A stretch of DNA of 64,000 nt from an uncultured Pseudomonadales bacterium. Lineage in GTDB: Bacteria; Patescibacteriota; Microgenomatia; UBA1400; PJMF01. The translations under genes were made by a program, and so were the position numbers. The DNA lies in the NCBI GenBank assembly GCA_964583795.1, contig CAZOWX010000001.1:30569-94568 (forward strand). The letters run 5' to 3'. The notes beneath the pieces are model-generated. The model searched no databases and was not told the origin of the DNA. It saw only the letters and a program-made list of their open reading frames with translations. Shown here one piece after another: positions 7,256 to 49,470 of the stretch; position 1 is the stretch's first letter; every line of letters starts with the position of its first letter.

Positions 7256-7267
7256 CAATTACATATC

Positions 7268-19052: not shown

Positions 19053-20597
19053 CTATTCAAATCCCCAGCTGTAAAGTGTCCCGGGCCAGATTGAGTAGGG
19101 ATTATCATCAAGAGGATAATGGTCAAGGTGTATTTCTTTGCGTAAATATTGTTGAGCAAACTCTACGACGTCTGCGGGTAACGAGCTGTCATCAATCCAA
19201 ACAAAACCGTGTTGATACTGATTCATCACTTTTTGAAAATCATCAAGTGACCCTACAAATCGAATCGCTGGGCTTGAAAAATTAGGAAGTACTTTTTCAC
19301 TATTGAGCAAAGAGACTGCAGTTGTTTTTGCCAAACCATTTACCGTCCCTTGCTCATTTTCCCAATGAAAATAAAACATGTTTGGATTTTCATATCCCAA
19401 GTACCATCTGGCTCGATCTGGCCAGGTATCTACAATTGCGACTGGCTGCGAACTGCTCATAACTTTTTGTTTTATGATTGAGTACACCAGATCATAATCA
19501 AGCAAAGCAATTTCCCGCATATCGTGATTCACAGAATAGTACGCTTTGGGTTTGATAACAAAAGTATCACCATTAGCAATAATAAATAGCGCGAGTAACA
19601 AAACAAACCCTGTTGCCTTTTTAGCCGCAATGCTGTGACTTACTGTTGCGAGCGCGAAACTTGCCAATATCAATATGAGTGGGTAGATCGGTAAAATGTA
19701 CCGAGAAACGTATGGACCAAACACAAAACTGACGAATACTAAGAAAAGTCCTGCTGGAACAACTAGTAAAAATGTACCTTTTTTGTAATGAAAAAAGTTC
19801 ATCAAGACACCGAGTCCCGCCAAAAAGCTCATCAAAGTATGTTCTCGCCATAAAAAGCTGTGATAGTACCACAAATTATTTGGGTGATTTCTCAAAGCAA
19901 CTAACAAATTTGCGATAACTGTCCCACCACTACCATTAAACAGCATTAAACCACCGAATATTCCCAAAACAGCAGCCCCATAGTGCCAATATCTTCGAAA
20001 AGTATTTAAAGAAAATAAATGCCAATGAAAACCTAAATAAACGGCATGGAATATCATTCCGATCACAACAATCCAAAAGGTTGTATGGGTTACAATCCCA
20101 AGAATAATCAATGCTGTCAAATACAATAATTTTTTAACTTCAAAATGTTTCACTAAACGGTGATATGTCCACAAGCTCAGCAATATAAGTAACTGAAGCA
20201 GCATGTAACTTCTCGCTTGTCTGGACCAGGCGATTTGAAAATAGGAAAAGGTCGCGAAAAGGCTTGCAGCAAGAGCAGTTTCACGATCATATAATGATCG
20301 GGCTAACAAAAAAACTGCAACAGGGATAGCAGATCCAATCAATACTGAAGGTAAACGTGCCGCTCGTTCTGTTTGACCAAAAAGTTGAAAAAATAATGAT
20401 ACAAGCGCGTGTTGTGTCACATTGTGATGTTCAAATAACTCATCGTGTTGGGTAAACACAGACAAGCCAAATCGCTGGAATAATAACGCATTACGTGCTG
20501 TCGAAAATTCGTCAACCCAAAATGGAGTTTGCAGATTTGGAAGACGATAGAGCAGAGCAATCGCGAAAATCGCAATGAATAAGATTTTTTTAATCAT
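19053..20597 (-). CDS. GT-C membrane glycosyltransferase, PMT_2/ArnT-like
   Basis: Polytopic. The loop-1 motif is WVDEFSTARNAL, followed by RLPSVLIGSAIPVAVF, as in the plus-strand paralogs. Confidence 0.7.
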   Translation of the reverse strand: MIKKILFIAIFAIALLYRLPNLQTPFWVDEFSTARNALLFQRFGLSVFTQHDELFEHHNVTQHALVSLFFQLFGQTERAARLPSVLIGSAIPVAVFLLARSLYDRETALAASLFATFSYFQIAWSRQARSYMLLQLLILLSLWTYHRLVKHFEVKKLLYLTALIILGIVTHTTFWIVVIGMIFHAVYLGFHWHLFSLNTFRRYWHYGAAVLGIFGGLMLFNGSGGTVIANLLVALRNHPNNLWYYHSFLWREHTLMSFLAGLGVLMNFFHYKKGTFLLVVPAGLFLVFVSFVFGPYVSRYILPIYPLILILASFALATVSHSIAAKKATGFVLLLALFIIANGDTFVIKPKAYYSVNHDMREIALLDYDLVYSIIKQKVMSSSQPVAIVDTWPDRARWYLGYENPNMFYFHWENEQGTVNGLAKTTAVSLLNSEKVLPNFSSPAIRFVGSLDDFQKVMNQYQHGFVWIDDSSLPADVVEFAQQYLRKEIHLDHYPLDDNPYSIWPGTLYSWGFE

Positions 20598-21880
20598 GTG
20601 ACAGACCTCTTTGAAATAATAAATCTTCGTATGACTTCGCCCACGTACACCAAGGCAAGCAACGAGTTGACAACAATGTTTATGACTAAAACATCACGAA
20701 GTGAGTGATGAACAGCAAAAATGGTAATGACCTGAACAATGACAGCGAGAATACCCAAAATAGCAAATCGGCTTTTTTGTGCCACAAAGTATTGAGAGTA
20801 CAGATACATCAGCGAGTACATCGTCCCAAATAAGGCTGCTAACCAAACCAAATCTTGCACTTGTAAAAAACGTGACTTTGCAAATACCACTTGAATGACA
20901 AAGCTAGGAAACAATGAATAAAAAAACGTCATACCAAAACCAACAACGATAATCCCAACGGTCAGTAACAACAATATTGGTAAGGATTGGTGCTTGGTAT
21001 CACTCCCTGTAAAAAAAGTATAACCAACCGTTGATAAGGGAGAAACAGCAAAAAAAATAATCTTTCCTAGCAGTGATAATGATGCATACAACCCTACCAA
21101 ATCTCCGTCAAAAAATTTCTTGACCAAAATCACATCAACATTTGAGAGTCCCACTATGCCTAAGGTCGTAAAAAGCGGAATTAAAATTGATTTTCGCCGT
21201 AAGTACTTTCTTAATTGAGCAAATTGGAGATTTTTTACTTGGTATGATGTTTTCTTCCGAATCATTTTTCTACCAATAAAATAGCTCAACACATAACTGA
21301 GAATAAACCCAACAAATAACCAGAACAGCTCAGGACGAATGACAACGACCAACACAAACAACGCCAACTTAATAAATGCACTCACAATTGAAAATATTCC
21401 GACTGACCAAAAAGTCTTGTATGACTGCAACACTGAAGAATAAAAGCTGGTGAATATTCCGATAATTGAGCTGGCAATCACAAATGCCACCGCCATAATA
21501 CTCATATTCCCTTTGAAGTACATTAACACAGCGACAACTGAAACTAACAATAGTAATGCCGGTGCAAACGTCCATAACTCTGTTTCAAGCCAGCGCTCAA
21601 TTGACAAAGCGATGCTTGGTCTTCTCTCAGATGACTCTCTGCCAATACGCGCAACGACAATCAAACCAAATGCAGTCAGAGGAACACTGAAAAAAATCAG
21701 ATATGATAACGCGGTAGTGTACTCACCATACTCTGTTAATGTCAGGTAGCGAGCAACAAGCAAGTTATCCACATACGCAATCACACTGACTAACAAATTC
21801 GCTGCTGTAAAGATAAAACTTGAACGCAAAAATGAATTATTCAACAAGCGTTTCATCATAGCAAAGTAGTCCAAAGGCAA
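20594..21880 (-). CDS. Wzx-like flippase / polysaccharide biosynthesis membrane protein
   Basis: About 12 TM segments. LLVARYLTLTEYGEYTTALSYL is typical of the MOP flippase N-terminus. It has a 4-nt overlap with the downstream GT-C gene. Confidence 0.6.
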   Translation of the reverse strand: MPLDYFAMMKRLLNNSFLRSSFIFTAANLLVSVIAYVDNLLVARYLTLTEYGEYTTALSYLIFFSVPLTAFGLIVVARIGRESSERRPSIALSIERWLETELWTFAPALLLLVSVVAVLMYFKGNMSIMAVAFVIASSIIGIFTSFYSSVLQSYKTFWSVGIFSIVSAFIKLALFVLVVVIRPELFWLFVGFILSYVLSYFIGRKMIRKKTSYQVKNLQFAQLRKYLRRKSILIPLFTTLGIVGLSNVDVILVKKFFDGDLVGLYASLSLLGKIIFFAVSPLSTVGYTFFTGSDTKHQSLPILLLLTVGIIVVGFGMTFFYSLFPSFVIQVVFAKSRFLQVQDLVWLAALFGTMYSLMYLYSQYFVAQKSRFAILGILAVIVQVITIFAVHHSLRDVLVINIVVNSLLALVYVGEVIRRFIISKRSVT

Positions 21881-21883
21881 CGA

Positions 21884-23470
21884 TCAAGCCGCCGAGGCTG
21901 GTTTTACTTGTTTCGGGGAAAAGTCTTTGAGGTGACCTAAGAAACGCCACCCAGCCATAGCCAAAAACTTCACATCATCAAACGATCGGATGCTAGTAAT
22001 TTTTCTGAGCATAAACCGTGGTGTTAAAAATGACGAGTATAGTTTTTGGGTAAGCCGTAAGACGTCTTCTTGCGTCAGTGACGTTTTCATCACCGGCTTT
22101 CGCATGTCATAGTCCTCATAATCCTCACTCAATAACCACCCGTTCTCTTTGCATTCCTTCCAAAGTGGGGTACCTGGATAAGGGATAGTGATAGTCGCTT
22201 GAAGTGTATCAACATAGCCTTCGTCAAAGCACTCTTTAGCGAGATTAATCGTTCGCTCTGCGTCCTCATATGTTTCCCAGGGATATCCCAGCATTATCGT
22301 TAAATGCGGCTCTAATCCAGCTTTCTTGGCCATTTTCACACCTTCTTTAATTTTGGGAACTTGCATACCTTTCTCGAGCCGATCGAGCGTTTTTTGATTA
22401 CCTGACTCCATGCCATAGAGAATGAATCGAAAATTCGCTTTTCCCATTAGGTCATAATCATCTTGCTTTATGGCATTAAGCCGCATATTACAGCCATAGA
22501 TCACTTTTTTGTTGTATCCCGAGTCAATCATCATCTGGCAAAAATCACGAAGCGGCTTGCCAATCATGAATGTACCCGCATCATCAAAAATTTCTTTGAC
22601 GTGATAGTTATCAACTAAGTGCTTGACTTCAGCGAATAGTCGCTCAGGACTAAATCGACGATAACTCCCCAAGGGGTTGATTGTATGATCCCAAACACAA
22701 AAGGTACAACGATTCCACCAACAATCGCGCCCACTGTACATGTAGGTACCAGGATAATACTTATAATTTCCGTTGTAGTACGCGTAGTTTTCCCAATGTG
22801 TCAGGTCGCGATCGACGAATGGTAAATCATTCAAGTTGTGCTTTAAACTTGCAGGACCAGAGTTGTAATATATTTTGCCATTTACCCCTTTAACCTTATG
22901 AAATTTCTTACATGAAATGGACTTATCTGACGAACGCCACCACACTCCCGTTTCAAGCTCTGTTCCCTTGCTCAAGTGGTCAAGTAAGTTCACAATCACA
23001 AAATCATAATCACCACCGGTAATCAAGTAATCTACACTGCAATTGTCCATCGTCTCCTGAGGCATGAAGGTCACGTGATCACCAACTAAGACTACTTTAA
23101 GTTTTGGCATCGCTTTTTTTATTTTGTCGACAACTTTCCAATGTTTTTTAATCACTGGTGATTTTGACTCAATCATCAGTACATCTGGATTGAATTCCTT
23201 AAGTTCTGTGAGCCATTGATCATACGTTTGCTCAGCAGCAATACCGTCCATCCACTTAGTTTCATAACCATGCTCTTGTGCATTCGACGCTGCATACGCT
23301 GGAACCATCGGGTAAATATAGGTCTTTGCGTTAAAATACTGAAATTGTCGGTTTTGAGAAAGAAGCGGAACCCCTTTACTTGACGGAATTGGAGGATAAC
23401 CAAAAACAAACTTCAACTTTTTTATTGATTTTTGTTTCATCACTTTTTTTGTGGTTTTTTTCGCTGGCAT
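21884..23470 (-). CDS. Cobalamin(B12)-binding-domain radical SAM protein (class B rSAM, probable methyltransferase)
   Basis: The N-terminal Rossmann-like B12-type domain is KVVLVGDHVTF…ITGGDYDF. The radical SAM cysteine cluster is RDCWWNRCTFC. The class-B motif GMESGNQKTLDRLEKG is present. Confidence 0.65.
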   Translation of the reverse strand: MPAKKTTKKVMKQKSIKKLKFVFGYPPIPSSKGVPLLSQNRQFQYFNAKTYIYPMVPAYAASNAQEHGYETKWMDGIAAEQTYDQWLTELKEFNPDVLMIESKSPVIKKHWKVVDKIKKAMPKLKVVLVGDHVTFMPQETMDNCSVDYLITGGDYDFVIVNLLDHLSKGTELETGVWWRSSDKSISCKKFHKVKGVNGKIYYNSGPASLKHNLNDLPFVDRDLTHWENYAYYNGNYKYYPGTYMYSGRDCWWNRCTFCVWDHTINPLGSYRRFSPERLFAEVKHLVDNYHVKEIFDDAGTFMIGKPLRDFCQMMIDSGYNKKVIYGCNMRLNAIKQDDYDLMGKANFRFILYGMESGNQKTLDRLEKGMQVPKIKEGVKMAKKAGLEPHLTIMLGYPWETYEDAERTINLAKECFDEGYVDTLQATITIPYPGTPLWKECKENGWLLSEDYEDYDMRKPVMKTSLTQEDVLRLTQKLYSSFLTPRFMLRKITSIRSFDDVKFLAMAGWRFLGHLKDFSPKQVKPASAA

Positions 23471-26858: not shown

Positions 26859-27704
26859 TCATTGTGTCGGTTGAGTCGCCACCAAAGTTTGTGGCTTTGG
26901 CTTTAACAACGTTTTCCTATTTCGATACGTGTTGAACAAAAGATTCAAAAACAATAAAGGCATTAAATAGGGCTCTGTGAGGTGTAACCGCATAGCAAGT
27001 GGCACGAGAATTCCCAAAAAAGCTCCATAGACTATTTGTTCTTTTTGATTGACGGGTGAGGTCTTTGGTTCAACAACCATTACCAGTACAAAAAAGAGTA
27101 AGGTTCCCTCGAGTAGGATAAATGCAGGAGAACGATGAACTAATAGTACGTGGGAAAGTATAAATAATAGTAAGAATGTTCCAACAATAAACAACTTCCG
27201 ATATTTCCAAGCGACATAGAGTCCCACTGGAACAGTTAAAAACACGACAATACTCATTCCGCCACGTATAATCGGTATCCTTGGAGTGAAGCTTGCTCCC
27301 CACCAGACAGGTGAGAAATGAATCAAACTCACAATTGTTGCAGCAAGCGCTGCTGGATTAAAAATCGGGCCACTCGGTAAGCGAGCTACACGTTGCAAAA
27401 GTTCCACCAACACTCCAACACAAAAGTAAAAGTACCAAGGATAGTCAATGTAAAATAATAATGAAAGAATAAGGCAGGTAATCAACCGGTGTTCAAAACG
27501 GGTTTCTCTGGTGAATTTTCTCCATAACAACACACGATAGACAAAAAAAGCACCCAAACATATGCTCAGAAAATTTCTCACAACACTCAAAGCGTCGAAC
27601 AGAGAACTGGATGCAACGCTGAGTGTTGCCATCACAAACACAATTGTGAGATAGTAGAGTAATGTGCGTATAGGCAGGATGCGAATGGACATGGTATTAT
27701 TCAA
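26859..27704 (-). CDS. Polytopic membrane protein, function unknown (first gene of the long minus-strand glycan operon)
   Basis: About 8 hydrophobic segments. No motif recognised. Confidence 0.4.
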   Translation of the reverse strand: MNNTMSIRILPIRTLLYYLTIVFVMATLSVASSSLFDALSVVRNFLSICLGAFFVYRVLLWRKFTRETRFEHRLITCLILSLLFYIDYPWYFYFCVGVLVELLQRVARLPSGPIFNPAALAATIVSLIHFSPVWWGASFTPRIPIIRGGMSIVVFLTVPVGLYVAWKYRKLFIVGTFLLLFILSHVLLVHRSPAFILLEGTLLFFVLVMVVEPKTSPVNQKEQIVYGAFLGILVPLAMRLHLTEPYLMPLLFLNLLFNTYRNRKTLLKPKPQTLVATQPTQ

Positions 27705-27718
27705 ACTTGTCTATTTAA

Positions 27719-27753
27719 TTTGCATATTACAAATATACTAACATAATTTGGAG
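27719..27753 (+). promoter_or_regulatory. Sigma70-like promoter plus RBS for the FMN-binding lipoprotein gene (TTTGCA -35 / CATAAT -10 / GGAG)
   Basis: TTTGCA 27719–24, a ~17-nt spacer and CATAAT 27742–47. GGAG 27750–53 sits 5 nt before ATG 27759. The region is divergent from the minus-strand operon start. Confidence 0.45.
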
Positions 27754-27758
27754 ACAAT

Positions 27759-28205
27759 ATGCCCAAATCAACAGCTCTATTACTGAGCACAACAATTATG
27801 GCTAGTGTACTGTTAGCCGCATGTACACCCTCATCACCAGCAAGTGAAACTTCGCAGACTCAACCATCTGAACCAACTACCGCCCCTACAACTGAGAATA
27901 CCGGTGAGATGACGAAAGGCAAGCAAGTTTCAGTTGATGCTCCTTATGAGTCTCCTGCTGGCGAAGAAAGCATCGGAATTACACTGAGCGTTGACGAAAA
28001 TGGGGTGATAACGGATGCAAAGGCCGAAGTAAAAGCTACTGAAGAAAAATCAATTGTTCGTCAACAGGCATTTGCTGATGGGCTTCCAACAGCAGTAAAG
28101 GGCAAAAAATTATCTGAATTGACTAAAATTGACAAAGTGGGGGGATCTTCACTAACCACACAAGCATTCAATGAAGCACTTGTGAAATTAAAGGCTCAAT
28201 TATAA
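27759..28205 (+). CDS. Lipoprotein with C-terminal FMN-binding (FMN_bind/NqrC-RnfG-like) domain, predicted extracytoplasmic
   Basis: The signal peptide ends with the lipobox LLAAC. The C-terminal IDKVGGSSLTTQAFNEAL resembles the flavinylation motif D-x-x-SGAT-[TS] of ApbE substrates. Confidence 0.5.
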   Translation: MPKSTALLLSTTIMASVLLAACTPSSPASETSQTQPSEPTTAPTTENTGEMTKGKQVSVDAPYESPAGEESIGITLSVDENGVITDAKAEVKATEEKSIVRQQAFADGLPTAVKGKKLSELTKIDKVGGSSLTTQAFNEALVKLKAQL

Positions 28206-28229
28206 TTGAGTCTGATTAAAAAAGTTTCA

Positions 28230-28263
28230 ATACCTGCTTCGGCTCGAAGCAGGTATTGTTTTT
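28230..28263 (+). terminator. Rho-independent terminator (12-bp perfect stem ATACCTGCTTCG/CGAAGCAGGTAT, loop GCT, then TGTTTTT)
   Basis: Read directly from the sequence, 25 nt after the lipoprotein stop. Confidence 0.7.
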
Positions 28264-28280
28264 ACAATCAAATAAATTCT

Positions 28281-29147
28281 ATGTTTGATTACACATTTGA
28301 ATCCATGGGAACTCATTGGAGTCTCTCAATTGACCACCAACACGTAACTTCAAGCGTGATTGAGGACATTAAAACCCAAACAAAGCAATTCGAACAACGG
28401 TTTTCTCGTTTCATCAAAAGCAGTGAATCTAATCAATTTCGCAAAAGTAAAGCTGGTGACTATCTAATTTCTACCGAATTTGCCGGACTGCTCAATGCGG
28501 GACAGCAATTATTTGAGTTGACTGGCGGAGCGTTCGATATGAGTATCGCCTCTTTCTTTGAACAAATCGGTTACGACGAAAGTTATAGTTTTCGTTCAAC
28601 AAAAAACACTCAGTGGAATGCTCCAAAATGGTCTCTTCATGGCAAACTTCTTTCCATTTCGGGCCCAATCGTATTTGACGTGGGAGGTTTTGGAAAAGGC
28701 TATTGGATTGATCAGATAAGTCAGATTTTACACAAGCACAATTTCCCACACCATCTGGTTGAGGGTGGAGGGGACATGGTTGCTACAGAAAAAAAAGACA
28801 ATTCTGCTTGGAATGTCGCTATTGAGTATCCTGGACAACCTGATCAAGCAATAGGTACAGTAGAGCTGAAAAATCAAGGCCTTGCAGTGTCGGATATTTT
28901 TAAACGAAAGTGGCAAAACTATCATCACTTGATTAACGCGAAATCGCACAAGCCAATTCACCATATTGTTAGTAACGCCGCAATCGCACCAACAGCGTTT
29001 TTAGCAGACCAGATGACCTCAGCACTTAGTTTTGCGCAACCGTCCCAATACCCTTTTATTGCACAGCAGCTTTCTGCTGAGTATTTTGTGATCAAACCCC
29101 AAAATGAACTGTTACAAAGTGCCAAATGGCCAGGAATATTTTTTTAA
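28281..29147 (+). CDS. apbE: FAD:protein FMN transferase, ApbE family
   Basis: The N-terminal FESMGTHWSLSI matches the ApbE (F/L)xxMGT start. Length is about 290 aa. The start was placed after the terminator hairpin, and no signal peptide is apparent. Confidence 0.65.
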   Translation: MFDYTFESMGTHWSLSIDHQHVTSSVIEDIKTQTKQFEQRFSRFIKSSESNQFRKSKAGDYLISTEFAGLLNAGQQLFELTGGAFDMSIASFFEQIGYDESYSFRSTKNTQWNAPKWSLHGKLLSISGPIVFDVGGFGKGYWIDQISQILHKHNFPHHLVEGGGDMVATEKKDNSAWNVAIEYPGQPDQAIGTVELKNQGLAVSDIFKRKWQNYHHLINAKSHKPIHHIVSNAAIAPTAFLADQMTSALSFAQPSQYPFIAQQLSAEYFVIKPQNELLQSAKWPGIFF

Positions 29148-39993: not shown

Positions 39994-41528
39994 TGAAAAG
40001 AATGATCGCTGCCCATTTTTTTTCGTCCAAAAAACTTCTAGTCGTTATTTGGTTTTTAGCAATTGCGCTTCGCATGCAAAATTTTTTGCTCCCGCCAATT
40101 GATGCTCACCCAATGCGCCAAACAGATACCGAAAGTGTGGCGTACTATTTTGCAACAGTTGATTATAGTCCACTTCGTCCACAAGCAAGTCTGATCCGCC
40201 CGCAAACAAATATTCATGGCTATTTTTTTCTTGAATTTCCAGCGTATGAGTACCTCATTGGGACCATGTATTGGATCTTTGGCACATCATATATCGTTGC
40301 TAGATTGATAAACGTACTGCTCTTTTCAGTGAGTTTTGCATTGTTATTCAAAACTATTGAGAAGTTATTCTCAGAAAAACTGGCAATCTGGACAGTGTTG
40401 CTATTTAGCTTCACTCCTTCATCAGTTTTCTTTTGGGGACATGCCATTCATCCTGACATCTTCGCCATTACCACTGTTGTAAGCTCACTGTATGTATTAC
40501 AAAGCAACAAAAGAAATTTATTCACCCTCTCTGTGGCAGGAGTACTTTTTGCACTTTCAGTAGGAACACGCCCATTTATTCTCATGGCGTTACCAAGCCT
40601 GCTAAGCGTCCTCTTCTTTAAAAAAGCGAAGTGGTGGGAGTATCTGGTTTTCAGTGTCCTTTCAGTCAGTATCTACGGGTTTTGGAGCTGGTGGCAACAG
40701 CTTTCCCCTGAGGCAGATGCAGCATGGCAACAATGGACTCTTCAGGGTAGAGAAGCGCTCTTCTCCTTCGCAGGCTGGAAACATCTCATTTGGCGCAATA
40801 CCAGTGGTGAAGTCTTGGGCAGAGTCGCTACAGTGTTGGCAGCAGTGGGCTTGGGAAGTTTACTGATCAAATCACGATCCGTGTTTCAACTGTTCAAGCA
40901 ATTTTCACTCCAAAAAATTATCAAACTTGTAGCAACTGTCGATACGATTTCTGCAGATACACGCTTACTTGTGTTTTGTGTCCTTTGGTTGTTGGCTGTA
41001 CCGATGTATTGGTACATTGCACCAGCCGGAAATGCAGCCCATCAATACTACGCCAATGTATTTCTCTTGCCATTGATGCTCCTCGCAGCACAAGGCTGTT
41101 TCTTTTTGAGCCATCGTAGACACAACGCACCTTGGCACTTTGGGATGAGCTTGGTCTTAGTACTTGCACTTATCTACAACACTGTTCGAACAAGCGCCTA
41201 CTTTTTTCACAATCTTGTTCCAGCACATCATCTTGATATCGCACAGGAGATTGAAATGGTCATTCCAAAAGGCCAAAAAATTGTGTATTTGGCAGTCAAT
41301 AACTCGGTGCCATTCTCGCTGGCACATCGTCAAGGTTGGATGCTTGGAGGCGCACCAACTGACGTTAATAACACTGCAACAGACGTCCTGGCTATGAAAC
41401 AGTATGGGGCGCAATACGCGGTTTTCGCGTTTGACAATAACGATTTTCCAAAAGAAGAACAAAAACTTTTGGAGCAGCAATCGGAAGTCATTTATCGATC
41501 GAAGGTTCTCACTGTGTTTAAACTCTAA
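39993..41528 (+). CDS. GT-C membrane glycosyltransferase, ArnT/PMT-like
   Basis: About 11 TM segments. The N-terminal loop has RQTDTESVAYYFA and FLEFPAYEYLIG. Confidence 0.6.
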   Translation: MKRMIAAHFFSSKKLLVVIWFLAIALRMQNFLLPPIDAHPMRQTDTESVAYYFATVDYSPLRPQASLIRPQTNIHGYFFLEFPAYEYLIGTMYWIFGTSYIVARLINVLLFSVSFALLFKTIEKLFSEKLAIWTVLLFSFTPSSVFFWGHAIHPDIFAITTVVSSLYVLQSNKRNLFTLSVAGVLFALSVGTRPFILMALPSLLSVLFFKKAKWWEYLVFSVLSVSIYGFWSWWQQLSPEADAAWQQWTLQGREALFSFAGWKHLIWRNTSGEVLGRVATVLAAVGLGSLLIKSRSVFQLFKQFSLQKIIKLVATVDTISADTRLLVFCVLWLLAVPMYWYIAPAGNAAHQYYANVFLLPLMLLAAQGCFFLSHRRHNAPWHFGMSLVLVLALIYNTVRTSAYFFHNLVPAHHLDIAQEIEMVIPKGQKIVYLAVNNSVPFSLAHRQGWMLGGAPTDVNNTATDVLAMKQYGAQYAVFAFDNNDFPKEEQKLLEQQSEVIYRSKVLTVFKL

Positions 41529-41529
41529 A

Positions 41530-42831
41530 TCACATTTCTGTTTTCATCAAAGCTTCAATTTCTTTCCTTTTTTGCTCAAAACCTTGTCTACCCAACAGTG
41601 CATACATCATTTGTTTGCCTTCTTCTACACCAGGCTGATTAAAAGCGTCCACACCCAACATCTGAGCCAAGTATACAACTGCTAACTCAAATACCATAAA
41701 TAACTCTCCCAATCCAGCGGCATTCAGTTTATCTACTGTGAGCGTTGCTGATGGCCTACCAAGTTTGCGCAAAGCCAGTGCAGTCGCATGTTGCTCAGCG
41801 TTTAAAATTTCATGAAATGAATGTCCTTTGAGATATGCCACAGACTCAAGATCAACCTGATCGAGAGTATAGTCATCCTGTCGTTGTTCTACACGTAAAA
41901 ATAGTAATGAATAAAACAAAGCTCCTTGTGTGTAAAACTGAACTTGTGAATGCTGATCCGCCGGTCCATGGGCTTGAATGGGCAAGATTCCTTTTTGCTC
42001 CTTTCCCAAAGACTCCCCCCAAAGCTGGCGATACCAACGCCCAAACTCATCAAGTGCTACACTGTAGGGCATGATAATACTGACGGCTACATTCTGTTGA
42101 TAGAGAAAAAACTGATCGGTGGCTATTTGCTTTGCAATGTTTGAGTACTGTTTTACAGATTCTTTCGCTCCAGAGACTAACTGATGAATATCTACTCCCA
42201 TACCAACAGCCGGAAATAGTCCAACCGTTGTTAACACTGAAAATCTTCCACCAACATCGTCTGGAATTGGTAGGGTAGTAACACCATGAGTATCCGCTTC
42301 TTCACGTAAGATACCCCTTTTGGCATCGGTAATGAATACAAAGTGATCTGCCCAATCGTCAGTTTGTTGCTTCATCACTGCCTTAAAAAAAACATACTGA
42401 GAGATTGTTTCGATCGTCTCACCAGATTTCGAAATAATACAAAAGATTGTTTCTTCCAAATCGATCTGTTTGAGTAATCGAGTTATGGCTGTTGGGTCAG
42501 TAGAGTCACCATGAAACAAAACATCCATCGCCACTTGATCTTGTTCAAGTGCTTGTTGAATGGCTCTCGCTCCCAAATCAGAGCCGCCAATACCGACAAC
42601 GACTAACGTTTTTGCATATCGAATTCCTTGAAAGGTTTTCTCAATCGTTTTGAGCAACTGTGAATCTGACAAAATATTGATAAAACCATATTTTTTTTGA
42701 GCAAGCTGCTCATCTACTGCAACAATCGCCTGATTGACTTGATTTTGAAACTTTTTGACTGTTTCAGAACGAATCCCGTGTTCTACGGCATTTGATTGAT
42801 AGAGAAAAGTGGAACTGTATTGTAAACTCAT
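41530..42831 (-). CDS. pgi: Glucose-6-phosphate isomerase
   Basis: 433 aa. The SIS-domain signature is TLVVVGIGGSDLGARA. Overall bacterial PGI layout. Confidence 0.8.
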   Translation of the reverse strand: MSLQYSSTFLYQSNAVEHGIRSETVKKFQNQVNQAIVAVDEQLAQKKYGFINILSDSQLLKTIEKTFQGIRYAKTLVVVGIGGSDLGARAIQQALEQDQVAMDVLFHGDSTDPTAITRLLKQIDLEETIFCIISKSGETIETISQYVFFKAVMKQQTDDWADHFVFITDAKRGILREEADTHGVTTLPIPDDVGGRFSVLTTVGLFPAVGMGVDIHQLVSGAKESVKQYSNIAKQIATDQFFLYQQNVAVSIIMPYSVALDEFGRWYRQLWGESLGKEQKGILPIQAHGPADQHSQVQFYTQGALFYSLLFLRVEQRQDDYTLDQVDLESVAYLKGHSFHEILNAEQHATALALRKLGRPSATLTVDKLNAAGLGELFMVFELAVVYLAQMLGVDAFNQPGVEEGKQMMYALLGRQGFEQKRKEIEALMKTEM

Positions 42832-42897
42832 TCACCGATGATGCCACACAAGCTCTGTAAAGACAAGTCACATGAGAAGCCAATTCAGCAGTCGAAG

Positions 42898-43830
42898 CTA
42901 ATCCATCGCCTGGAGTGCCAACTGTAGCGCTCCATAAACTGGAGGATTTTGAGGAATAACAAAACGCACTTTTGGATAGTTTGCTTGCACTCGCAGCTCC
43001 AATTGGGAATGAATAAATGGATCGGTGGCAATACCTCCAACTAAAACAACATCGGTTGTGATATTAGTAAGATCGAGTCGTCTCAGAACCGTCAGCACCA
43101 TTTCCATCAAATCCTCAATTGCTGCTCGAATAATCTCGTTTGCTGTCGCGTCATGTTCGTCCTTGGCTTCAAAACAAATGTGTGCCAACTCACCAATTTT
43201 AGTTTTGTTCAATATTGGGTGATACACTTTATTTTTTAGCTGTTCAATTGAGCTAATCTCAAAATGAGCACATACTAATTTCTCAATAACTGATTTTTTT
43301 GAACGCCCGTCGTAACTTTTGACGGCTGCCCGTAAAACCTGTTGACCAATGTCAAAACCACTGCCTTGGTCGGAGAGCAAGTAATCCATGCCTCCTGCTT
43401 TCACCCTCAAACCAGATTCATTTTGACCAAAACAATTCGAACCAGTTCCAGAGATGAGACAGATCGCATTTTTTGCCTGTGTACCACTTGCGAGGGCGAT
43501 AATCGTGTCATTGACTAGCTCAAAGTGAGTAACACCATACAACTGCTTCAACTCGCTAGAGAATAGTTCTATTGCTAGCTGTAGCTCTTCTTTGGTATCA
43601 ACACCGGCCAAGCCAATGACAACATTGGAAAATGTTAAAATATTCAAACCCTCTGACGCCTGCTTCACCGCATCAAGAAAATGTTCGGTGGCATGTTTTT
43701 GTGAGGTAGCAGCTAAACTCATTGGTCCAGTTGTAGCTTTGCCTACAACTTTTCCACTTTGATCAGCTACCCAGGCAGTTGTCTTTGTTCCACCTCCATC
43801 AACAGCCAGAATGAAATGTTGTTTAGTCAT
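42898..43830 (-). CDS. BadF/BadG/BcrA/BcrD-type ATPase; N-acetylglucosamine-kinase-like sugar kinase
   Basis: FILAVDGGGTKTTAWV is the signature N-terminus of the BadF-type/GlcNAc kinase family. Confidence 0.7.
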   Translation of the reverse strand: MTKQHFILAVDGGGTKTTAWVADQSGKVVGKATTGPMSLAATSQKHATEHFLDAVKQASEGLNILTFSNVVIGLAGVDTKEELQLAIELFSSELKQLYGVTHFELVNDTIIALASGTQAKNAICLISGTGSNCFGQNESGLRVKAGGMDYLLSDQGSGFDIGQQVLRAAVKSYDGRSKKSVIEKLVCAHFEISSIEQLKNKVYHPILNKTKIGELAHICFEAKDEHDATANEIIRAAIEDLMEMVLTVLRRLDLTNITTDVVLVGGIATDPFIHSQLELRVQANYPKVRFVIPQNPPVYGALQLALQAMD

Positions 43831-44158
43831 GATGCAAAGTATACAACTCCCTGCTTAGAAAAAAAGATAAAACTGTGCGAATCACCACGATCAGCGCTAA
43901 ACGAATCAATTCATCAATTGTTGGTTTCAGAATGGTGCTCATCGCATCAGCGACAATAAAAAACTCAAGACTAAAAACAATCTTCTGAGCAAAAGCTAGT
44001 CTTGCCTTTTCTATCTTTTTCATCATGTTCGTATCCACCTTCCATGGTTGATACGAGAAATAATAATAGGCGGCAGAAACACCACCAACTAAAAGAGCTA
44101 AGTAACCAAGTAAGTCAAAAAATATTTGTGACGCATCAACGAAAAGTGTCATTGTCAT
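43823..44158 (-). CDS. Small membrane protein, unknown
   Basis: 111 aa with two hydrophobic helices. It overlaps the upstream gene by 8 nt. Confidence 0.35.
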   Translation of the reverse strand: MTMTLFVDASQIFFDLLGYLALLVGGVSAAYYYFSYQPWKVDTNMMKKIEKARLAFAQKIVFSLEFFIVADAMSTILKPTIDELIRLALIVVIRTVLSFFLSRELYTLHHD

Positions 44159-44248
44159 ATTGATTTCTCTCTAGAGCTAATCGATTTCACCAATTGTCTT
44201 TTTTTGAACAGCAGGTCATTGCTGTATAAGTACTCAACGCTCTTTTGT

Positions 44249-46246
44249 TTAGTACTCAGTTGGTTGTTCGTGTAGCAAACCAATCTCTTTAAGTTTGGCA
44301 ACATACATCAAAACTGTTTCGACGAATACACTGTGACTCCAAACCAACGGCGTTGCGGAAAGCGAAGCTCCAGTTAAAGGGTGAATTTGCTCAGCCAGCA
44401 CACCGGAAGAGAACTGATATTTTTCTACCCAGTCAAATATGGATCGCACATACTCGATATCTCGGTCACTCAAAACAGGTCGGTGCAAAATACGCTGCGC
44501 TTCCCACATAGTAATAATGAACCAAGAGTTTGAAAACTGGGTTGACTTGAAGTAGTTATCATGTTCATACCGAATATACCCTCCCAACTCACTTGGGTTC
44601 TTCAAACGTTTTTGCACTGCAGCCTCAGTCGATAAAAATAACGGATCATCGTGCTTCAACATCTCAAAGTACCACAGCCCAAACAGCGAGCTCGCATCCA
44701 CTACCTCAAAACGATCAACTTGACCATCTTGAACATAGGCGTAACGAATAAACGAGTTCAGATCAGGACTATACAGATGTTCTATAGCAGCGCGCTTAAT
44801 CTTTGCTGCAGCATCACGATACAACCTCAGATGATTACGCTTTCCCAACAACTGCGCAAAGTTCGCAGCTGCCATCAGGCCACCATATACGCATGCACAA
44901 GTATAAGTCGATACACCAATCTTTTCTTCCCACAAATCATATGAATGTAACGGAAGTCCCAATTTTTCATCACGAAAACTTACCAGGAAATTCGCAATTT
45001 TTTCAGTGAGTGGTTTAAACAACATCTCAATGAACTCGATATCCTTAGTCAGTTCATAGTGCTTCCACAACGCAAAGATAACCGCGGCACTTTCGTCTTC
45101 CTGAATGGGAAGCTGCAAGATTTTATTTTTTAACCAATCATTTTGAGCAATACTAGAGTGCCAAGTTGAACCCAAACTTTCATCCGGGCGAAATCGGTGA
45201 TGTAAGTAGCCGTCTTCATGAAGCACATTTTTACAAAATAAGAAAAATGGCTTGGTAACCTCTGTGTACCCTGCTTTGTCCAGTGTCATCGTAATAAATG
45301 CCGCGTCACGTGGCCAAACATACGAGTAATCATCTTTGCCATACTCAATCATGTTTGAATCTGCAGAAGCAATAATGCCTCCTCGATTATCCACATGTGA
45401 ACGCAACACAAATAAAGAAGTGTCAAACAAACGCTTCTTACTATCAGAAAGAATCCCTTTCGGCAGTGGTCGCTTATTTAACCAAGCGTTCCAGTACAAC
45501 TGGGTTGAATGCAACATACCATCCGGGGTCTTTTTCAAGACCAGTGAGTTTAGGGCATACGCATCATTTAAGCTCTTTCCTGCACAAATCCAGTAGTAAA
45601 TTGTCGTTTTTTGATCATTTTCGCAACTGGTACAAAACCGAATGACGCTATCAACCGATCCATGTTCTACCGCATTTTTACTCAGCATTCCATCTTCCGC
45701 ATCCCTGTATGAACCTTCTTTCCCTTCAAACTGAAATGAACCAACTGTGTATTGATCAATGGCGTTTCCAGACTCAGTCACCCCGTTGATGATAAATACG
45801 CGACGCCCTTTGTAGTGAACGATGGCATTATGTGTCGGATCATAAAATCCAGTGTTACGTTTGTTTCCTTCATCGATAATAAACTCTTGGCCAAAAAATA
45901 TTTTGATATCCAGTTGTTTTTTTGTGTGATTGTAGATATCGACTCTGCGCAAAAAAATATTTGCTTCGTTATATACTAAGTCATCAGTAACAATACTCAC
46001 TTGTAATTTCTCATTGCGAGCAATCATTTGGCTCACCATGGATTCTTTTTTATACCCTATCTTAATCTTCCAAGACGGATCATGAAGCCAAGAAAAAACA
46101 CCATCGACCATCACACCGATCCGATGTTTGTAGCCCGCTACATGATTCGCTAATCCCACATAGGGATAATAAAGATCGCGAACATATCCGGTTTCATCCA
46201 GACAAACCATCATATTCCCGTTGGATAAAACTGTCGCTCTGGCCAT
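44249..46246 (-). CDS. Glycoside hydrolase family 15-like (glucoamylase / glucodextranase / trehalase-type) enzyme
   Basis: 665 aa. The N-terminal β-sandwich-like region (VLSNGNMMVCLDETGYVRDLYYPYVG) is followed by an (α/α)6-type region, as in bacterial/archaeal GH15 enzymes. Assigned by recollection. Confidence 0.55.
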   Translation of the reverse strand: MARATVLSNGNMMVCLDETGYVRDLYYPYVGLANHVAGYKHRIGVMVDGVFSWLHDPSWKIKIGYKKESMVSQMIARNEKLQVSIVTDDLVYNEANIFLRRVDIYNHTKKQLDIKIFFGQEFIIDEGNKRNTGFYDPTHNAIVHYKGRRVFIINGVTESGNAIDQYTVGSFQFEGKEGSYRDAEDGMLSKNAVEHGSVDSVIRFCTSCENDQKTTIYYWICAGKSLNDAYALNSLVLKKTPDGMLHSTQLYWNAWLNKRPLPKGILSDSKKRLFDTSLFVLRSHVDNRGGIIASADSNMIEYGKDDYSYVWPRDAAFITMTLDKAGYTEVTKPFFLFCKNVLHEDGYLHHRFRPDESLGSTWHSSIAQNDWLKNKILQLPIQEDESAAVIFALWKHYELTKDIEFIEMLFKPLTEKIANFLVSFRDEKLGLPLHSYDLWEEKIGVSTYTCACVYGGLMAAANFAQLLGKRNHLRLYRDAAAKIKRAAIEHLYSPDLNSFIRYAYVQDGQVDRFEVVDASSLFGLWYFEMLKHDDPLFLSTEAAVQKRLKNPSELGGYIRYEHDNYFKSTQFSNSWFIITMWEAQRILHRPVLSDRDIEYVRSIFDWVEKYQFSSGVLAEQIHPLTGASLSATPLVWSHSVFVETVLMYVAKLKEIGLLHEQPTEY

Positions 46247-46252
46247 AGATCG

Positions 46253-47539
46253 TTATCCTTTCAGTGCAAAAGTTGTGTTTGCACTACTCATTGTAGCTGA
46301 AGAACGTGCAATTCGCCTATGCTGAAGTGTATTTTTTGTACCCTTCTGATGTTCAGTCAAGCGAGAGTGAATGTCTGCTAAAACGGTCGTATAGCGAACA
46401 TACGCATCCATCGGATTTTGATAGGGACTAAAATAGGCATGAACATCTCCATCAGCTGACCATTTAATACACATATAATAAAAATGATCACTCGTTTGCA
46501 ATTTTCTCCAATCCTCAATCAGCCGCACATCATTGGTTTCCTTGACTTGTTCTTCAAGTTCGTAAATTAAGCGCAGTGTGTCGTACTGCAAATCATTGTC
46601 TCTCCATGCGGACAGATCACGATCAATATCTGCCCAAGAAATGGGTTCTGGTACCTTGTAAAAGGGCAATTGTTGTACGTGCACAGAACGCATTGCTTGT
46701 GAGGGGGTCACAAAACGATTCCAAGAGTACTGCTGCAATTTTTCAACAACGTATTCAAAAAAAGAAAAAATACCGGTATCGCTCCATTGATGCTCGCCGA
46801 ACGTTTCAAAATCCATAAACAGGTTGATAAACTCGTTTTCTTGGTACTGATTAAGCCAGTGAACATAGGTGTCAGCGTTCAGCGGGTAGCGTTCCCAATT
46901 ACGATCTGAAAATCGAAAAGCAATATCATCTGATAATTGCGCATGCTTGAGCATCAGTGGAATTCTATGCTTGGTATAACTGGAAAATAATTGAGTTCTG
47001 GTCTGTCCATCCAAATACCGATCCACTGCTTCGGTCAGCATTCCTTGAAATCCTAACTCTGCAACATAGGAACCAATTAAGTCAGAATAAATAAGCTCTG
47101 TATTGCGAAAGGTTGTGGGAACAATAGAGAATACCTCTCGCATCTTTTGAGTGTGTGTTGCAACTTGATCGAAAAATTCGTGTTTTGAGTATAAAGAAGA
47201 AAGTGAGTGGTAATAGGTTTCAGCAAGTACTTCTACTTGGCCAGTAGCCACAAGTTGTTGCAAAAGCGTAACTAACTTGGGAGCAAACTGTTCTGCTTGT
47301 TCCAAAAAGATTCCCGAACATGAAAGCGACCAAACAAACTGCGGAAATCGTTTGGTTAAGTGTTGCAATACTCTGAGCATTGGAAAATATGACTTTTCAG
47401 CAACTTTGAGAAAAACCTGGCGATTTTGGTCATCAGCATCTTTTCCGAAATACTCATGGTTTCGACCAATATCAAACACAGTGTACTCGTTAAGCCGAAA
47501 TGGTTGATGCAGTTCAAAATAAAAAGCGACTTTTGGCAT
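46253..47539 (-). CDS. Glycoside hydrolase family 57 (α-amylase / 4-α-glucanotransferase / branching-enzyme-like)
   Basis: The N-terminal FYFELHQPFRL is the GH57 HQP motif. Size is 428 aa. Confidence 0.65.
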   Translation of the reverse strand: MPKVAFYFELHQPFRLNEYTVFDIGRNHEYFGKDADDQNRQVFLKVAEKSYFPMLRVLQHLTKRFPQFVWSLSCSGIFLEQAEQFAPKLVTLLQQLVATGQVEVLAETYYHSLSSLYSKHEFFDQVATHTQKMREVFSIVPTTFRNTELIYSDLIGSYVAELGFQGMLTEAVDRYLDGQTRTQLFSSYTKHRIPLMLKHAQLSDDIAFRFSDRNWERYPLNADTYVHWLNQYQENEFINLFMDFETFGEHQWSDTGIFSFFEYVVEKLQQYSWNRFVTPSQAMRSVHVQQLPFYKVPEPISWADIDRDLSAWRDNDLQYDTLRLIYELEEQVKETNDVRLIEDWRKLQTSDHFYYMCIKWSADGDVHAYFSPYQNPMDAYVRYTTVLADIHSRLTEHQKGTKNTLQHRRIARSSATMSSANTTFALKG

Positions 47540-47646
47540 ACTCGACTTTCAGTTCGCAAGTACAACTTGCGCTCTCGATTTGAATGTCTCTACTTACTCA
47601 CAGTGAAAATTTCAATACTCGCGTACGCAACTGTTCAAAAAAGGCT

Positions 47647-48903
47647 TTAAAAATTTCGATGGCTCTGCAATATTCGTTGGTACACCTGTTTCACTTTTTC
47701 TGCGGACTGTTTCCAGGTAATTTGACCCAAGCTTTGTAACTGTTGATCCACAATGCGTTCATAGTAGTTCGGGTCTTGAAGCAGTTTTTCAATATATTGT
47801 GTCATCAAATCAGTATCCCAAAAATCAGCAACAATTGCACCAGGGAGGACTTCCCGTACACCAGAGCTTTTCGAGATGATCACAGGAGTTTCGCGTTGCA
47901 CTGCCTCGAGAGCGACTAGACCAAATGGTTCTGACACTGATGGCATCACAAAAATATCAGCACGATCAAGCAAAAAATCTTTTTGTTGGTCACGCAAAAA
48001 GCCGGCAAAGATAACTGACGAGGATAAATGTTGTTTGGCATTTTCCAGCAAAAGCATGCTGTACTGATCACCATGCCCAGCAACGACAAAGAGAGCATTG
48101 GGTATTCTAGCGAGCACTTTTTTTGCTAGTTCGAGAAAATACTGCGCTCCCTTTTGCATTGTCAGGCGCCCCATAAACACGATGATCGGTCTACCTTGAG
48201 CAAACTGTACGGTTTGAATCTTAGGGGCTGCATCGATTCCATTGTGAACCACGTCAATTTTATCGGGATCAACGTCGTAGCGATCAACCAAGACTTGTTT
48301 AGTAAACTCACTTACCGCTATTACTCGATCAGCGTCTTGTAATCCTTCGTACTCAACATGTGCGATAAATGGATTTCCATTACCAGACGGCACACGATCA
48401 AACTCTGTCGAATGCACATGAGCGACAAAAGGTAGATTTAATTGCTTTTTTAGATGCTTGGCGGCTGGATACGTCATCCAGTCGTGAGCATGAATAATGT
48501 CGGTCTGAACGTGATTTGATTGTACGGCACTTAAAATTGCATGAGCATACTCATTGACTCGATACTCAAGTTCTGAAAAACTGAGCATCTTCACATTTTT
48601 GGGATCAAAATCAATGTCACTTGCTCGACTCTCATTTCTTGTCTGGTAGGCAGAAAATGGTGGTTTTGAATGGTCAATTGCGTATGTCTGAATTTTACTA
48701 ACACAAGAAATCACATGCATGTGATTAATGTCAGAGGGAAATCGATAGGGTAGTGTAAAGTAAATCTCGGTACCGTCTTTTGAAAGAGCTTGTGTCAAGC
48801 CTTCACACGCCACACCCAACCCACCACTATTGTGCGGTGGATATTCCCATCCAAGCATAAGCACCTGATCATTCACCATATCAATACCAATAGATACATT
48901 CAC
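47647..48903 (-). CDS. Glycogen/α-glucan synthase-like GT-B glycosyltransferase (GT4/GT5)
   Basis: LMLGWEYPPHNSGGLGVACEGLTQAL is a GlgA-type nucleotide-sugar binding N-terminus. The C-terminal motif is FVMPSVSEPFGLVALEA. Confidence 0.6.
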   Translation of the reverse strand: MNVSIGIDMVNDQVLMLGWEYPPHNSGGLGVACEGLTQALSKDGTEIYFTLPYRFPSDINHMHVISCVSKIQTYAIDHSKPPFSAYQTRNESRASDIDFDPKNVKMLSFSELEYRVNEYAHAILSAVQSNHVQTDIIHAHDWMTYPAAKHLKKQLNLPFVAHVHSTEFDRVPSGNGNPFIAHVEYEGLQDADRVIAVSEFTKQVLVDRYDVDPDKIDVVHNGIDAAPKIQTVQFAQGRPIIVFMGRLTMQKGAQYFLELAKKVLARIPNALFVVAGHGDQYSMLLLENAKQHLSSSVIFAGFLRDQQKDFLLDRADIFVMPSVSEPFGLVALEAVQRETPVIISKSSGVREVLPGAIVADFWDTDLMTQYIEKLLQDPNYYERIVDQQLQSLGQITWKQSAEKVKQVYQRILQSHRNF

Positions 48904-49047
48904 AGCGACAAAACTATCTGCCGTTATTTAGTATAAACTCGATTTTCAATCTACTACAATAGGAAGAACCGGATTTGTCTTTGATGAAATGAGTTTTCTA
49001 CAATAGAATGAAGGTATTATTTTTATCACAGCTTTCTTGACAGAGGT

Positions 49048-49470
49048 ATGAAAAAATTTTTTAGAAAAATTTCCACCCATACTTCATTACTTGTCGGAGG
49101 CCCATATTCGTTTAGTTTAGCAGTACTCATTATTGTTGTCTGGTGGTTCACTGGACCCGTCTTTGATTTTTCAGATACTTGGCAACTAATGATTAATACT
49201 GGCACTACAATTGTCACCTTTCTGATGGTGTTTTTAATCCAAAATACACAAAATCGCGATACCAAAGCCATTCAAATTAAGCTCGATGAGTTACTCAGAG
49301 CAGTAAAAGGAGCCAGAAACACATTGGTCGATATTGAAGATGTCGATGACGCTCAACTTGATGAATTGCAGATGGAATTTAAAGCTCTGAGAGAACATTA
49401 TGAGCTGCGTTTGAAAAAAATAGAAGAGATGAGACTGGCTCAAAATTTGAAGAAGCATAATATTGGGTAA
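49048..49470 (+). CDS. Small membrane protein resembling the low-affinity iron permease (Fet4-like, PF04120) family
   Basis: Two TM helices plus a coiled C-terminus. FLMVFLIQNTQNRDTKAIQIKLDELLRA matches the family as recollected. Confidence 0.45.
   Translation: MKKFFRKISTHTSLLVGGPYSFSLAVLIIVVWWFTGPVFDFSDTWQLMINTGTTIVTFLMVFLIQNTQNRDTKAIQIKLDELLRAVKGARNTLVDIEDVDDAQLDELQMEFKALREHYELRLKKIEEMRLAQNLKKHNIG

Follow-up and report, generated by a model that had tools for sequence, protein, structure and literature searches.

Does a short run of sugar-active genes in a Patescibacteria (candidate phyla radiation, CPR) genome encode a glycogen-like store, or only the means to consume glucan made elsewhere? 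The question is raised by positions 41530–48903 of the 64,000-nucleotide (nt) stretch of contig CAZOWX010000001.1 analysed here, hereafter the window. In this interval genes for a glycosyltransferase (GT), two hydrolases of glycoside hydrolase families 57 (GH57) and 15 (GH15), a BadF-type sugar kinase and glucose-6-phosphate isomerase (PGI) lie on the minus strand. The first four, in the order GT-GH57-GH15-kinase, constitute a conserved operon of CPR genomes, and their clustering is not due to chance. The operon is fairly probably an archaeal-style module for a cytoplasmic glycogen-like alpha-glucan; the kinase would convert the glucose that it yields to glucose-6-phosphate, for use by PGI or the pentose-phosphate pathway.

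Gene order in the window and among CPR genomes

The list of open reading frames (ORFs) and Pfam searches identify six consecutive, co-directional genes in this interval, given here in their 5′ to 3′ order.

47647–48903, minus strand: GT-B retaining glycosyltransferase (PF00534, 111 bits; PF13439, 81; PF08323, 67)
46253–47539, minus strand: GH57 hydrolase, alpha-amylase (AAMY) subfamily (PF03065, 193 bits)
44249–46246, minus strand: GH15, glucoamylase-type hydrolase (PF00723, 102 bits)
43823–44158, minus strand: DUF1622 small membrane protein of 111 amino acids (aa) (PF07784, E 5.4e-21)
42898–43830, minus strand: BadF/BcrAD-family ATPase, a NAGK-type ASKHA sugar kinase (PF01869, 120 bits)
41530–42831, minus strand: PGI, last gene of the string (PF00342, 113 bits against a threshold of 22)

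Every ORF scores well above its Pfam gathering threshold. The initial annotation had described five consecutive minus-strand genes. Its coordinates, strand and all five family calls are correct; the five are not consecutive, the DUF1622 ORF having been overlooked.

The conservation of the string was examined by searching GTDB, with each species represented by a single genome, using a kinase alignment, and then placing the six window proteins by tblastn. The ortholog set comprises 37 Patescibacteria loci with kinases of 39–64% identity. GH15 lies directly upstream of the kinase, on the same strand, in 35 of the 37; in 34 the estimated distance to the kinase start is at most 150 nt, and in some the two ORFs overlap. 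The full string GT-GH57-GH15-kinase is present in 28 of 32 loci, the count being restricted to those with at least 4.7 kb of upstream sequence. The median estimated gaps for GT-GH57, GH57-GH15 and GH15-kinase are 2, −23 and 26 nt, approximate values taken from alignment ends. GT is directly upstream of GH57 in all 29 GH57-bearing loci, separated by a few nt in 27. The earlier proposal of a dedicated cluster of storage-glucan enzymes thus holds as far as the clustering is concerned.

Relatives of GH57 at 57–71% identity retain the order GT-GH57-GH15-kinase in four independent assemblies. Three of these have unrelated flanks, with sortase and transketolase genes in two and citrate-lyase-like and pentose-phosphate genes in one; the closest relative (71%) has the same neighbours as the window, including PGI after the kinase. 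Since the flanks differ while the string persists, the four genes travel as a unit. The operon sits among central-carbon genes in most lineages, whereas in the window it sits among surface-glycan genes. When the flanking ORFs were clustered, the recurrent ones were the N- and C-terminal halves of a split transketolase, encoded separately in 21 and 20 loci, and lactate dehydrogenase, in 13. Fpg, TruB and a conserved protein of 104 aa, which matches DUF1599 below threshold, also recur. These recurrent ORFs include no phosphoglucomutase, nucleotidyltransferase, branching enzyme, phosphorylase or transporter.

The kinase gene stands alone at two loci, L021, where it is beside transketolase, and L038. 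Phosphoglucomutase, GlgC and GalU were found neither in the inserts between GH57 and GH15 of L007 and L012 nor flanking L021, L029, L031 and L038; the genes at these places are hypotheticals, a primase, a pseudouridine synthase and a transketolase. GH15, GH57 and GT are absent near all 42 more distant kinase homologues (27–35% identity), which come mostly from Bacillota, Acidobacteriota and Planctomycetota and include two CPR loci (Kerfeldbacteria and a Saccharibacteria metagenome-assembled genome, MAG). In the BroJett025-type genome (L003 9198–11206 and L016 8331–9992) GH15 is split into ORFs of 140 and 482 aa; the split may be genuine (a frameshift or a pseudogene) or stem from faulty assembly, and the rest of that operon is intact.

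PGI and DUF1622 are lineage-specific additions to the operon. PGI adjoins it in only three of the 37 loci (L006, L022 and L041), and DUF1622 occurs outside the window only in L026 (7125–7349). The window PGI scores 293, 282 and 230 bits with the NCBIfam PGI equivalogs, all below cut-off (the best, 293 against 487), and is by its sequence a divergent but clear PGI-superfamily protein. The initial annotation was right about the family of this gene, which does not belong to the conserved operon. DUF1622, placed between GH15 and the kinase, is a membrane protein encoded among cytoplasmic sugar enzymes.

In the window, GH57 and GH15 are separated by 6 nt, the stop of DUF1622 overlaps the kinase ATG by 8 nt, and 66 nt lie between the kinase and PGI. 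A low-affinity iron permease gene is located 5′ of the cluster in divergent orientation, and a plus-strand PMT-family gene, convergent with PGI, ends at 41528 on the 3′ side. Promoter and terminator predictions in 41300–49300 are about as numerous as in shuffled sequence and do not help to delimit the operon. Scanning the window for Rfam families and tRNAs gave no match.

The enzymes of the operon

The conserved sequence regions (CSRs) of the window GH57 are ELHQP (aa 9–13), GQVEVL (100–105), RNTELI (145–150), FMDFETFGEH (241–250) and LQTSDHFYY (347–355), and the HQP motif pointed out in the initial annotation is at aa 11–13. The nucleophile E148 in CSR-3 and the proton donor D243 in CSR-4 are invariant among 30 orthologs. 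Across the same set CSR-3 to CSR-5 are invariant or nearly so, with single conservative changes at two positions. The GH57 alpha-amylase fingerprint of Martinovicova and Janecek consists of Glu or Gln at position 1, Arg or Glu but not Trp at position 12, and Tyr-Tyr at positions 35–36. The window GH57 has all three, as E9, R145 and Y354-Y355. The alpha-amylase group in Table S1 of these authors includes the characterised M. jannaschii MJ1611 (RNTELI, LQTSDNLYY), S. acidocaldarius AAY80547.1, which is Saci_1200 AmyA (ENTELL, FTTSDHYYY), and a Saccharibacteria TM7x protein (LQTSDHFYY). GH57 is predicted to be a cytoplasmic endo-acting alpha-1,4-glucanase and/or a glucan-remodelling enzyme, and is a candidate for either role. 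The window protein has 428 aa, compared with 395–415 aa in most orthologs, owing to a C-terminal extension of about 30 residues (46253–46360) that is Ser/Thr/Arg-rich and not conserved.

GH15 aligns over its full length (aa 12–647) with the 'oligosaccharide amylase' model TIGR01577 at 319 bits, under the cut-off of 820.7. The models of the archaeal trehalases TreH2 and TreH1 give 68 and 56 bits, and TIGR01535 gives 60 bits. The motifs WPRD (311–314), DLWEE (437–441, with the acid E440) and LAEQ (617–620, with the base E619) are invariant in 33 orthologs; we take their roles, substrate binding, acid and base, from what is established for GH15. The enzyme is predicted to be an exo-acting hydrolase of the glucoamylase type, which would release glucose from alpha-glucan or maltooligosaccharide. 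The initial annotation had named an assignment of the hydrolases to families unrelated to alpha-glucans as the outcome that would overturn it; this is not borne out, GH57 bearing the alpha-amylase fingerprint and GH15 both catalytic glutamates. A trehalose cycle (TreT or OtsA with TreH) was considered and rejected as the principal interpretation. The trehalase models score far below the amylase model, GT20 matches are sub-threshold, and the fingerprint of GH57 points to alpha-1,4-glucan. No signal peptide was found on GT, GH57 or GH15, each of which begins with its catalytic core; therefore their substrate is cytoplasmic.

The kinase preserves in the 37 orthologs the motifs DGGGTKT (from D11), Asn/His-Asp (N107-D108 in the window, D108 being catalytic) and GTGS (from G128). 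It thus combines the phosphate-1 motif DxGxT, a catalytic Asp after strand beta-4, the phosphate-2 motif GTGS and the sugar-kinase fold, the features of an ASKHA sugar kinase. By sequence, its matches in the PDB are C. acetobutylicum MurK (8zo3, E 5e-40), S. tokodaii hexokinase (StHK; 2e2n, E 3e-22) and human NAGK (E 8e-10). The AlphaFold2 model (pLDDT 92.5) gives Foldseek TM scores of 0.90 with MurK, 0.81–0.82 with StHK and 0.83 with NAGK. Its score with 1hux, the activator of 2-hydroxyglutaryl-CoA dehydratase, is only 0.46, and a role as a BadF-type CoA-dehydratase activator was rejected. The loop GGWGHxxGDEGSG of MurK and NAGK, or GGRGWLLSDDGSA of StHK, is (S/G)GMDYLL(T/A/S)DQGSG in all CPR orthologs. 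An attempt to read the sugar from individual residues failed. Three positions were taken from the paper on T. forsythia MurK: the one preceding the catalytic Asp, the Asn at GTGS+1 and the Asn of the N-acetyl pocket. Each is either shared by MurK, StHK and NAGK or variable among the CPR orthologs. The proteins are deposited as 'BadF/BadG/BcrA/BcrD ATPase', 'N-acetylglucosamine kinase-like' or 'hypothetical'.

The window encodes no other glucose kinase, whether canonical hexokinase or glucokinase, ADP-glucokinase or ROK protein. The gene is a candidate ATP-dependent gluco- or hexokinase for glucose released by GH15, its gene context pointing to the sugar. The simplest reason for the nearly obligate linkage of GH15 and the kinase is that the kinase recovers this glucose. 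The informative downstream genes use glucose-6-phosphate or products derived from it: PGI in the window and its closest relative, and, in a Pacebacteria MAG (L005/L041), genes for 6-phosphogluconolactonase, transaldolase, PGI, glucose-6-phosphate dehydrogenase and 6-phosphogluconate dehydrogenase, which follow the kinase. The suggestion that a BadF-type kinase replaces the classical glucokinase is thus strongly supported by gene context, with GH15 upstream nearly throughout and pentose-phosphate genes or PGI downstream in some loci, whereas its nearest characterised relative, a kinase of N-acetylmuramic acid (MurNAc) and N-acetylglucosamine (GlcNAc), speaks on the other side.

The GT has the two Rossmann-like domains, the N-terminal Gly-rich loop and the C-terminal EX7E motif of retaining GT-B enzymes (GT4/GT5). 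The N-terminal motif GWEYPPHNSGGLGVAC, NSGGLG (aa 25–30) and EX7E (E325...E333) are invariant in the orthologs, whose N-termini make the ATG at 48879 a likelier start codon than the GTG at 48903. PF08323, the N-domain of the starch synthase catalytic region, spans aa 13–232. The AlphaFold2 model (pLDDT 84, pTM 0.83) is closest in Foldseek to the GT4 enzymes MshA, GlgM, BshA and sucrose-phosphate synthase (TM 0.72–0.74), and P. abyssi glycogen synthase (PaGS) ranks 13th. The fold search was tried as a guide to the acceptor and abandoned, as small-acceptor GT4 enzymes and glycogen synthases all fall within TM 0.67–0.74. Some orthologs are labelled 'glycogen(starch) synthase' at JGI/IMG, and 'GT4 family protein' at NCBI. 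The adjacency to GH57 makes GT a candidate alpha-glucan (glycogen-like) synthase.

A proposed glucan module and its alternatives

In the pathway that we favour, the GT4/GT5-like transferase would extend an alpha-1,4-glucan using nucleoside diphosphate (NDP)-glucose made elsewhere in the genome. GH57, always beside GT, would cut or remodel the chains, possibly as a remodelling partner in synthesis, and GH15 would free glucose from the chain ends. The NAGK/BadF-family kinase would convert the freed glucose to glucose-6-phosphate, which would enter central metabolism through PGI here and through pentose-phosphate enzymes in other lineages. Breakdown would be hydrolytic, yielding free glucose and not glucose-1-phosphate, and a kinase would therefore be needed to recover the sugar.

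Several observations weigh against this pathway, and they are considered here together with the alternatives. Genes for phosphoglucomutase, glucose-1-phosphate nucleotidyltransferase, branching enzyme, debranching enzyme and phosphorylase occur nowhere in the 64-kb window, nor in the conserved flanks of the 37 loci. The sole nucleotidyltransferase of the window is of the ManC type (GDP-mannose), and a GalE-like epimerase hints at UDP-hexose pools. The "closed alpha-glucan cycle" of the initial annotation is therefore overstated. Loci L029 and L031 carry GH15 and the kinase with no GT and GH57 nearby, and in Saccharimonadia, according to a preprint, degradative genes are more widespread than the synthase. 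Some lineages may thus only degrade glucan.

An unlikely alternative extends this to the operon as a whole: there would be no storage, GH57 and GH15 would degrade maltodextrin or glycogen fragments from the host or from lysed cells, the kinase would capture the glucose, and GT would have a side role (priming, transglycosylation) or an unrelated product. The GH15-kinase pair is indeed the tightest of the operon and the one kept at L029 and L031. The lack of NDP-glucose-forming enzymes near the operon and the spread of degradative genes in Saccharimonadia are as scavenging would predict. GH13, GH15 and GH57 enzymes of CPR are usually interpreted in the literature as amylose degraders, and a DPANN episymbiont has been reported to use homologous enzymes on exogenous glycogen and starch. 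Against this alternative, GT is present directly upstream of GH57, mostly within a few nt, at every GH57 locus. The operon and its recurrent neighbours lack a transporter, the GT and both hydrolases lack signal peptides, and the homologous GH57-GT pair of Sulfolobus is biosynthetic.

Another alternative, distinctly improbable in our view, concerns the kinase, which would act on amino sugars (GlcNAc or MurNAc) in cell-wall salvage, its adjacency to GH15 being historical rather than functional. Its nearest characterised relative in both sequence and structure, C. acetobutylicum MurK, phosphorylates MurNAc and GlcNAc, the sequence motifs do not discriminate glucose from GlcNAc, the database name 'N-acetylglucosamine kinase-like BadF-type ATPase' agrees with such a function, and CPR bacteria depend on salvage. 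Nor is the group sharply isolated in sequence. A gap between the CPR orthologs and other homologues, apparent in the GTDB scan (221 then 152 bits), was discarded when an exhaustive search filled it, the scores below the orthologs forming a continuum from about 208 to 140 bits. Yet the gene directly upstream at 35 of the 37 loci, in divergent CPR species, belongs to GH15, a glucose-releasing family, and the informative downstream neighbours are users of glucose-6-phosphate rather than NagA or NagB. Neither nagA, nagB nor murQ is found in the window or among the recurrent neighbours. The family contains a glucose-accepting hexokinase, and the score with the bacterial NagK equivalog (NagK_SO3507, NF046058) is 91 bits, well under the cut-off of 370.

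The similarity of GT to glycogen synthases is also limited. It scores 137 bits against a cut-off of 302 with TIGR02149 (glgA_Coryne) and 84 against 328 with TIGR02095 (glgA), and the ortholog profile matches GlgM (6tvp) at 119 bits, MshA at 77 and P. abyssi glycogen synthase at 66. The call of a "glycogen-synthase-like GT-B" accordingly stands for the GT-B family, whereas the glycogen-synthase models fall short and the nearest solved relative is the maltose-1-phosphate synthase GlgM. That the product of GT is a small alpha-glucoside (the maltose-1-phosphate of GlgM, a compatible solute, or a precursor of a glycolipid or of the cell surface), with the hydrolases turning over this product or a polymer made from it by another enzyme, would fit the better match to GlgM than to archaeal glycogen synthase, the small-acceptor GT4 enzymes at the top of the structural search and the surface-glycan genes that crowd the window, but is very improbable, because no GlgE-type maltosyltransferase is found in the window and flanks, the GlgM-type model itself is far from its cut-off, the starch-synthase domain match begins already at residue 13, GT travels with GH57 and GH15 where the flanks hold no surface-glycan genes, and the GH57 fingerprint implies an alpha-1,4-glucan substrate.

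If the kinase is the hexokinase that CPR genomes are reported to lack, many CPR bacteria of the Microgenomates/Pacebacteria type would run an intracellular glycogen store that is mobilised hydrolytically. Episymbionts would thereby gain an autonomous energy buffer and a defined entry to upper glycolysis and the pentose-phosphate shunt. GH15 and GH57 of CPR would be recast as cytoplasmic parts of a glycogen-type reserve like that of archaea, including DPANN, and not as agents of external amylose degradation, and such a reserve bears on how long the cells survive away from a host. Were the operon to serve scavenging only, it would point to a specific nutrient flow, of glycogen fragments, from host to epibiont.

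Jaffe et al. report hexokinase/glucokinase to be missing from nearly all CPR lineages and explicitly leave room for 'novel, divergent enzymes'; ADP-glucokinase is likewise reported to be lacking in nearly all CPR, as are convincing ROK glucokinases. In view of this absence, the kinase is a concrete candidate for the gap in the lineages that bear the operon. The wider proposal, that the GH15-linked NAGK/BadF kinase is the missing hexokinase of CPR, seems to us evenly poised. CPR makes up a large share of bacterial diversity, published surveys find no hexokinase in most of its lineages, and for the entry of carbon into the truncated CPR glycolysis the kinase offers a candidate step that can be tested.

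Host, remainder of the window and known systems

The nearest relatives of the GH57, kinase and GT proteins belong to MAGs of Patescibacteria that bear the names Pacebacteria, Woesebacteria or 'Patescibacteria group'. This places the host in the Patescibacteria (CPR), probably in a Microgenomates/Pacebacteria-like lineage, with the reduced genome surmised in the initial annotation; the GC content of the window is about 40%. Many public MAG records with the operon bear the title 'uncultured Pseudomonadales bacterium', 'Vitreimonas sp.' or 'Limisphaerales bacterium' (L010–L015, L034, L039, L007 and L008). They are clearly Patescibacteria by protein similarity, for example isolate HK-STAS-PATE-16, and the titles are apparent taxonomic mislabels.

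The remainder of the window consists mostly of surface-glycan genes: more than 15 GT2 and GT4 genes, PMT_2-type membrane transferases, a Wzy_C-like protein, sugar epimerases, the ManC-type guanylyltransferase and an initiating phosphoglycosyl transferase. It also contains ruvABC, greA, recO and mraW. Four tandem ORFs of about 550 aa on the plus strand (3936–10517) are mutual paralogues with 24–29% identity (E 1e-19 to 1e-60), of which only one reaches the Pfam PMT_2 model; the set looks like an expansion of membrane glycosyltransferases within a very large surface-glycan region. At 21884–23470 on the minus strand, amid genes for glycosyltransferases and polysaccharide export, lies the gene for a B12-binding radical SAM enzyme that may modify the surface glycan; the 428-aa ORF beside it (20594–21880) has no Pfam match. 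The plus-strand ORF at 12392–15277 (961 aa) likewise has no Pfam match; homology with an unannotated 961-aa ORF near the operon in L002 was considered and dismissed, tblastn finding no similarity and the equal length being coincidental. An RnfD/NqrB-like membrane protein with a weak PF03116 match, near an ApbE flavin transferase gene (26859–29147), may point to a flavinylated redox component of the membrane in a genome that otherwise looks fermentative.

All five enzyme families of the cluster are already known, and starch or glycogen genes have been mentioned in the literature for Pacebacteria and Saccharimonadia. No prior description of the conserved four-gene operon, or of the systematic coupling of GH15 with a NAGK/BadF kinase, was found in the literature. 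In S. acidocaldarius, the glycogen locus comprises glgX-gaa-glgC and amyA-glgA; amyA (GH57) and glgA form one transcript, and deleting either abolishes glycogen, whereas gaa (GH15) and glgX drive its degradation (Lee et al. 2021, PMC8158581). The two loci are alike in that a GH57 of the same subfamily adjoins the glucan synthase gene and a GH15 is in the cluster. The Sulfolobus AmyA CSRs (EVHQP/RKVEFL/ENTELL/FVDYETFGEH/FTTSDHYYY) are of the same type as those of the window GH57. The loci differ in that the window has neither glgC nor glgX/TreX, adds a sugar kinase and, in this lineage, PGI, places GT before GH57 and belongs to a bacterium.

CSR-3 and CSR-5 of the window GH57 are almost identical to those of M. 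jannaschii MJ1611, and the catalytic residues are the same, although MJ1611 is longer (467 aa). MJ1611 is presumably near genes for GH15, glycogen synthase, PGI and an ADP-dependent sugar kinase, an equivalent set of functions; a literature search on the MJ1604–MJ1611 cluster gave nothing. That kinase would be of the ribokinase fold and hence not homologous to the ASKHA kinase of the window.

StHK (PDB 2e2n–2e2q) belongs to the same NAGK/BadF family and fold as the window kinase and accepts glucose as well as amino sugars. Four of the 37 CPR orthologs have, like StHK, His-Asp instead of Asn-Asp ahead of the catalytic base. The identity is about 25%, however, and the StHK loop has GGRGW where the window has GGMDY. 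C. acetobutylicum MurK (8zo3) is the closest solved relative and shares the Asn-Asp dyad and the GTGS motif; it differs in sequence (about 27% identity by structural alignment), in the loop, which is replaced in CPR, and in context, which in CPR is GH15 and not murein recycling.

Mycobacterial GlgM (6tvp; formerly 'GlgA') is the best match to GT among solved structures, with a GT4 retaining fold and a similar EYPP..GG.G N-terminal motif. The identity is only about 23%, the TIGR02149 score is low as noted, and the window lacks the GlgE partner. The classical glgBXCAP operon is devoted to making and degrading an alpha-glucan reserve, as is proposed for the present one. The CPR operon does without GT5 GlgA, GH13 GlgB and GlgX, GlgC and GT35 GlgP, and where the classical system is phosphorolytic, this one would be hydrolytic, through GH57 and GH15, and would require a kinase.

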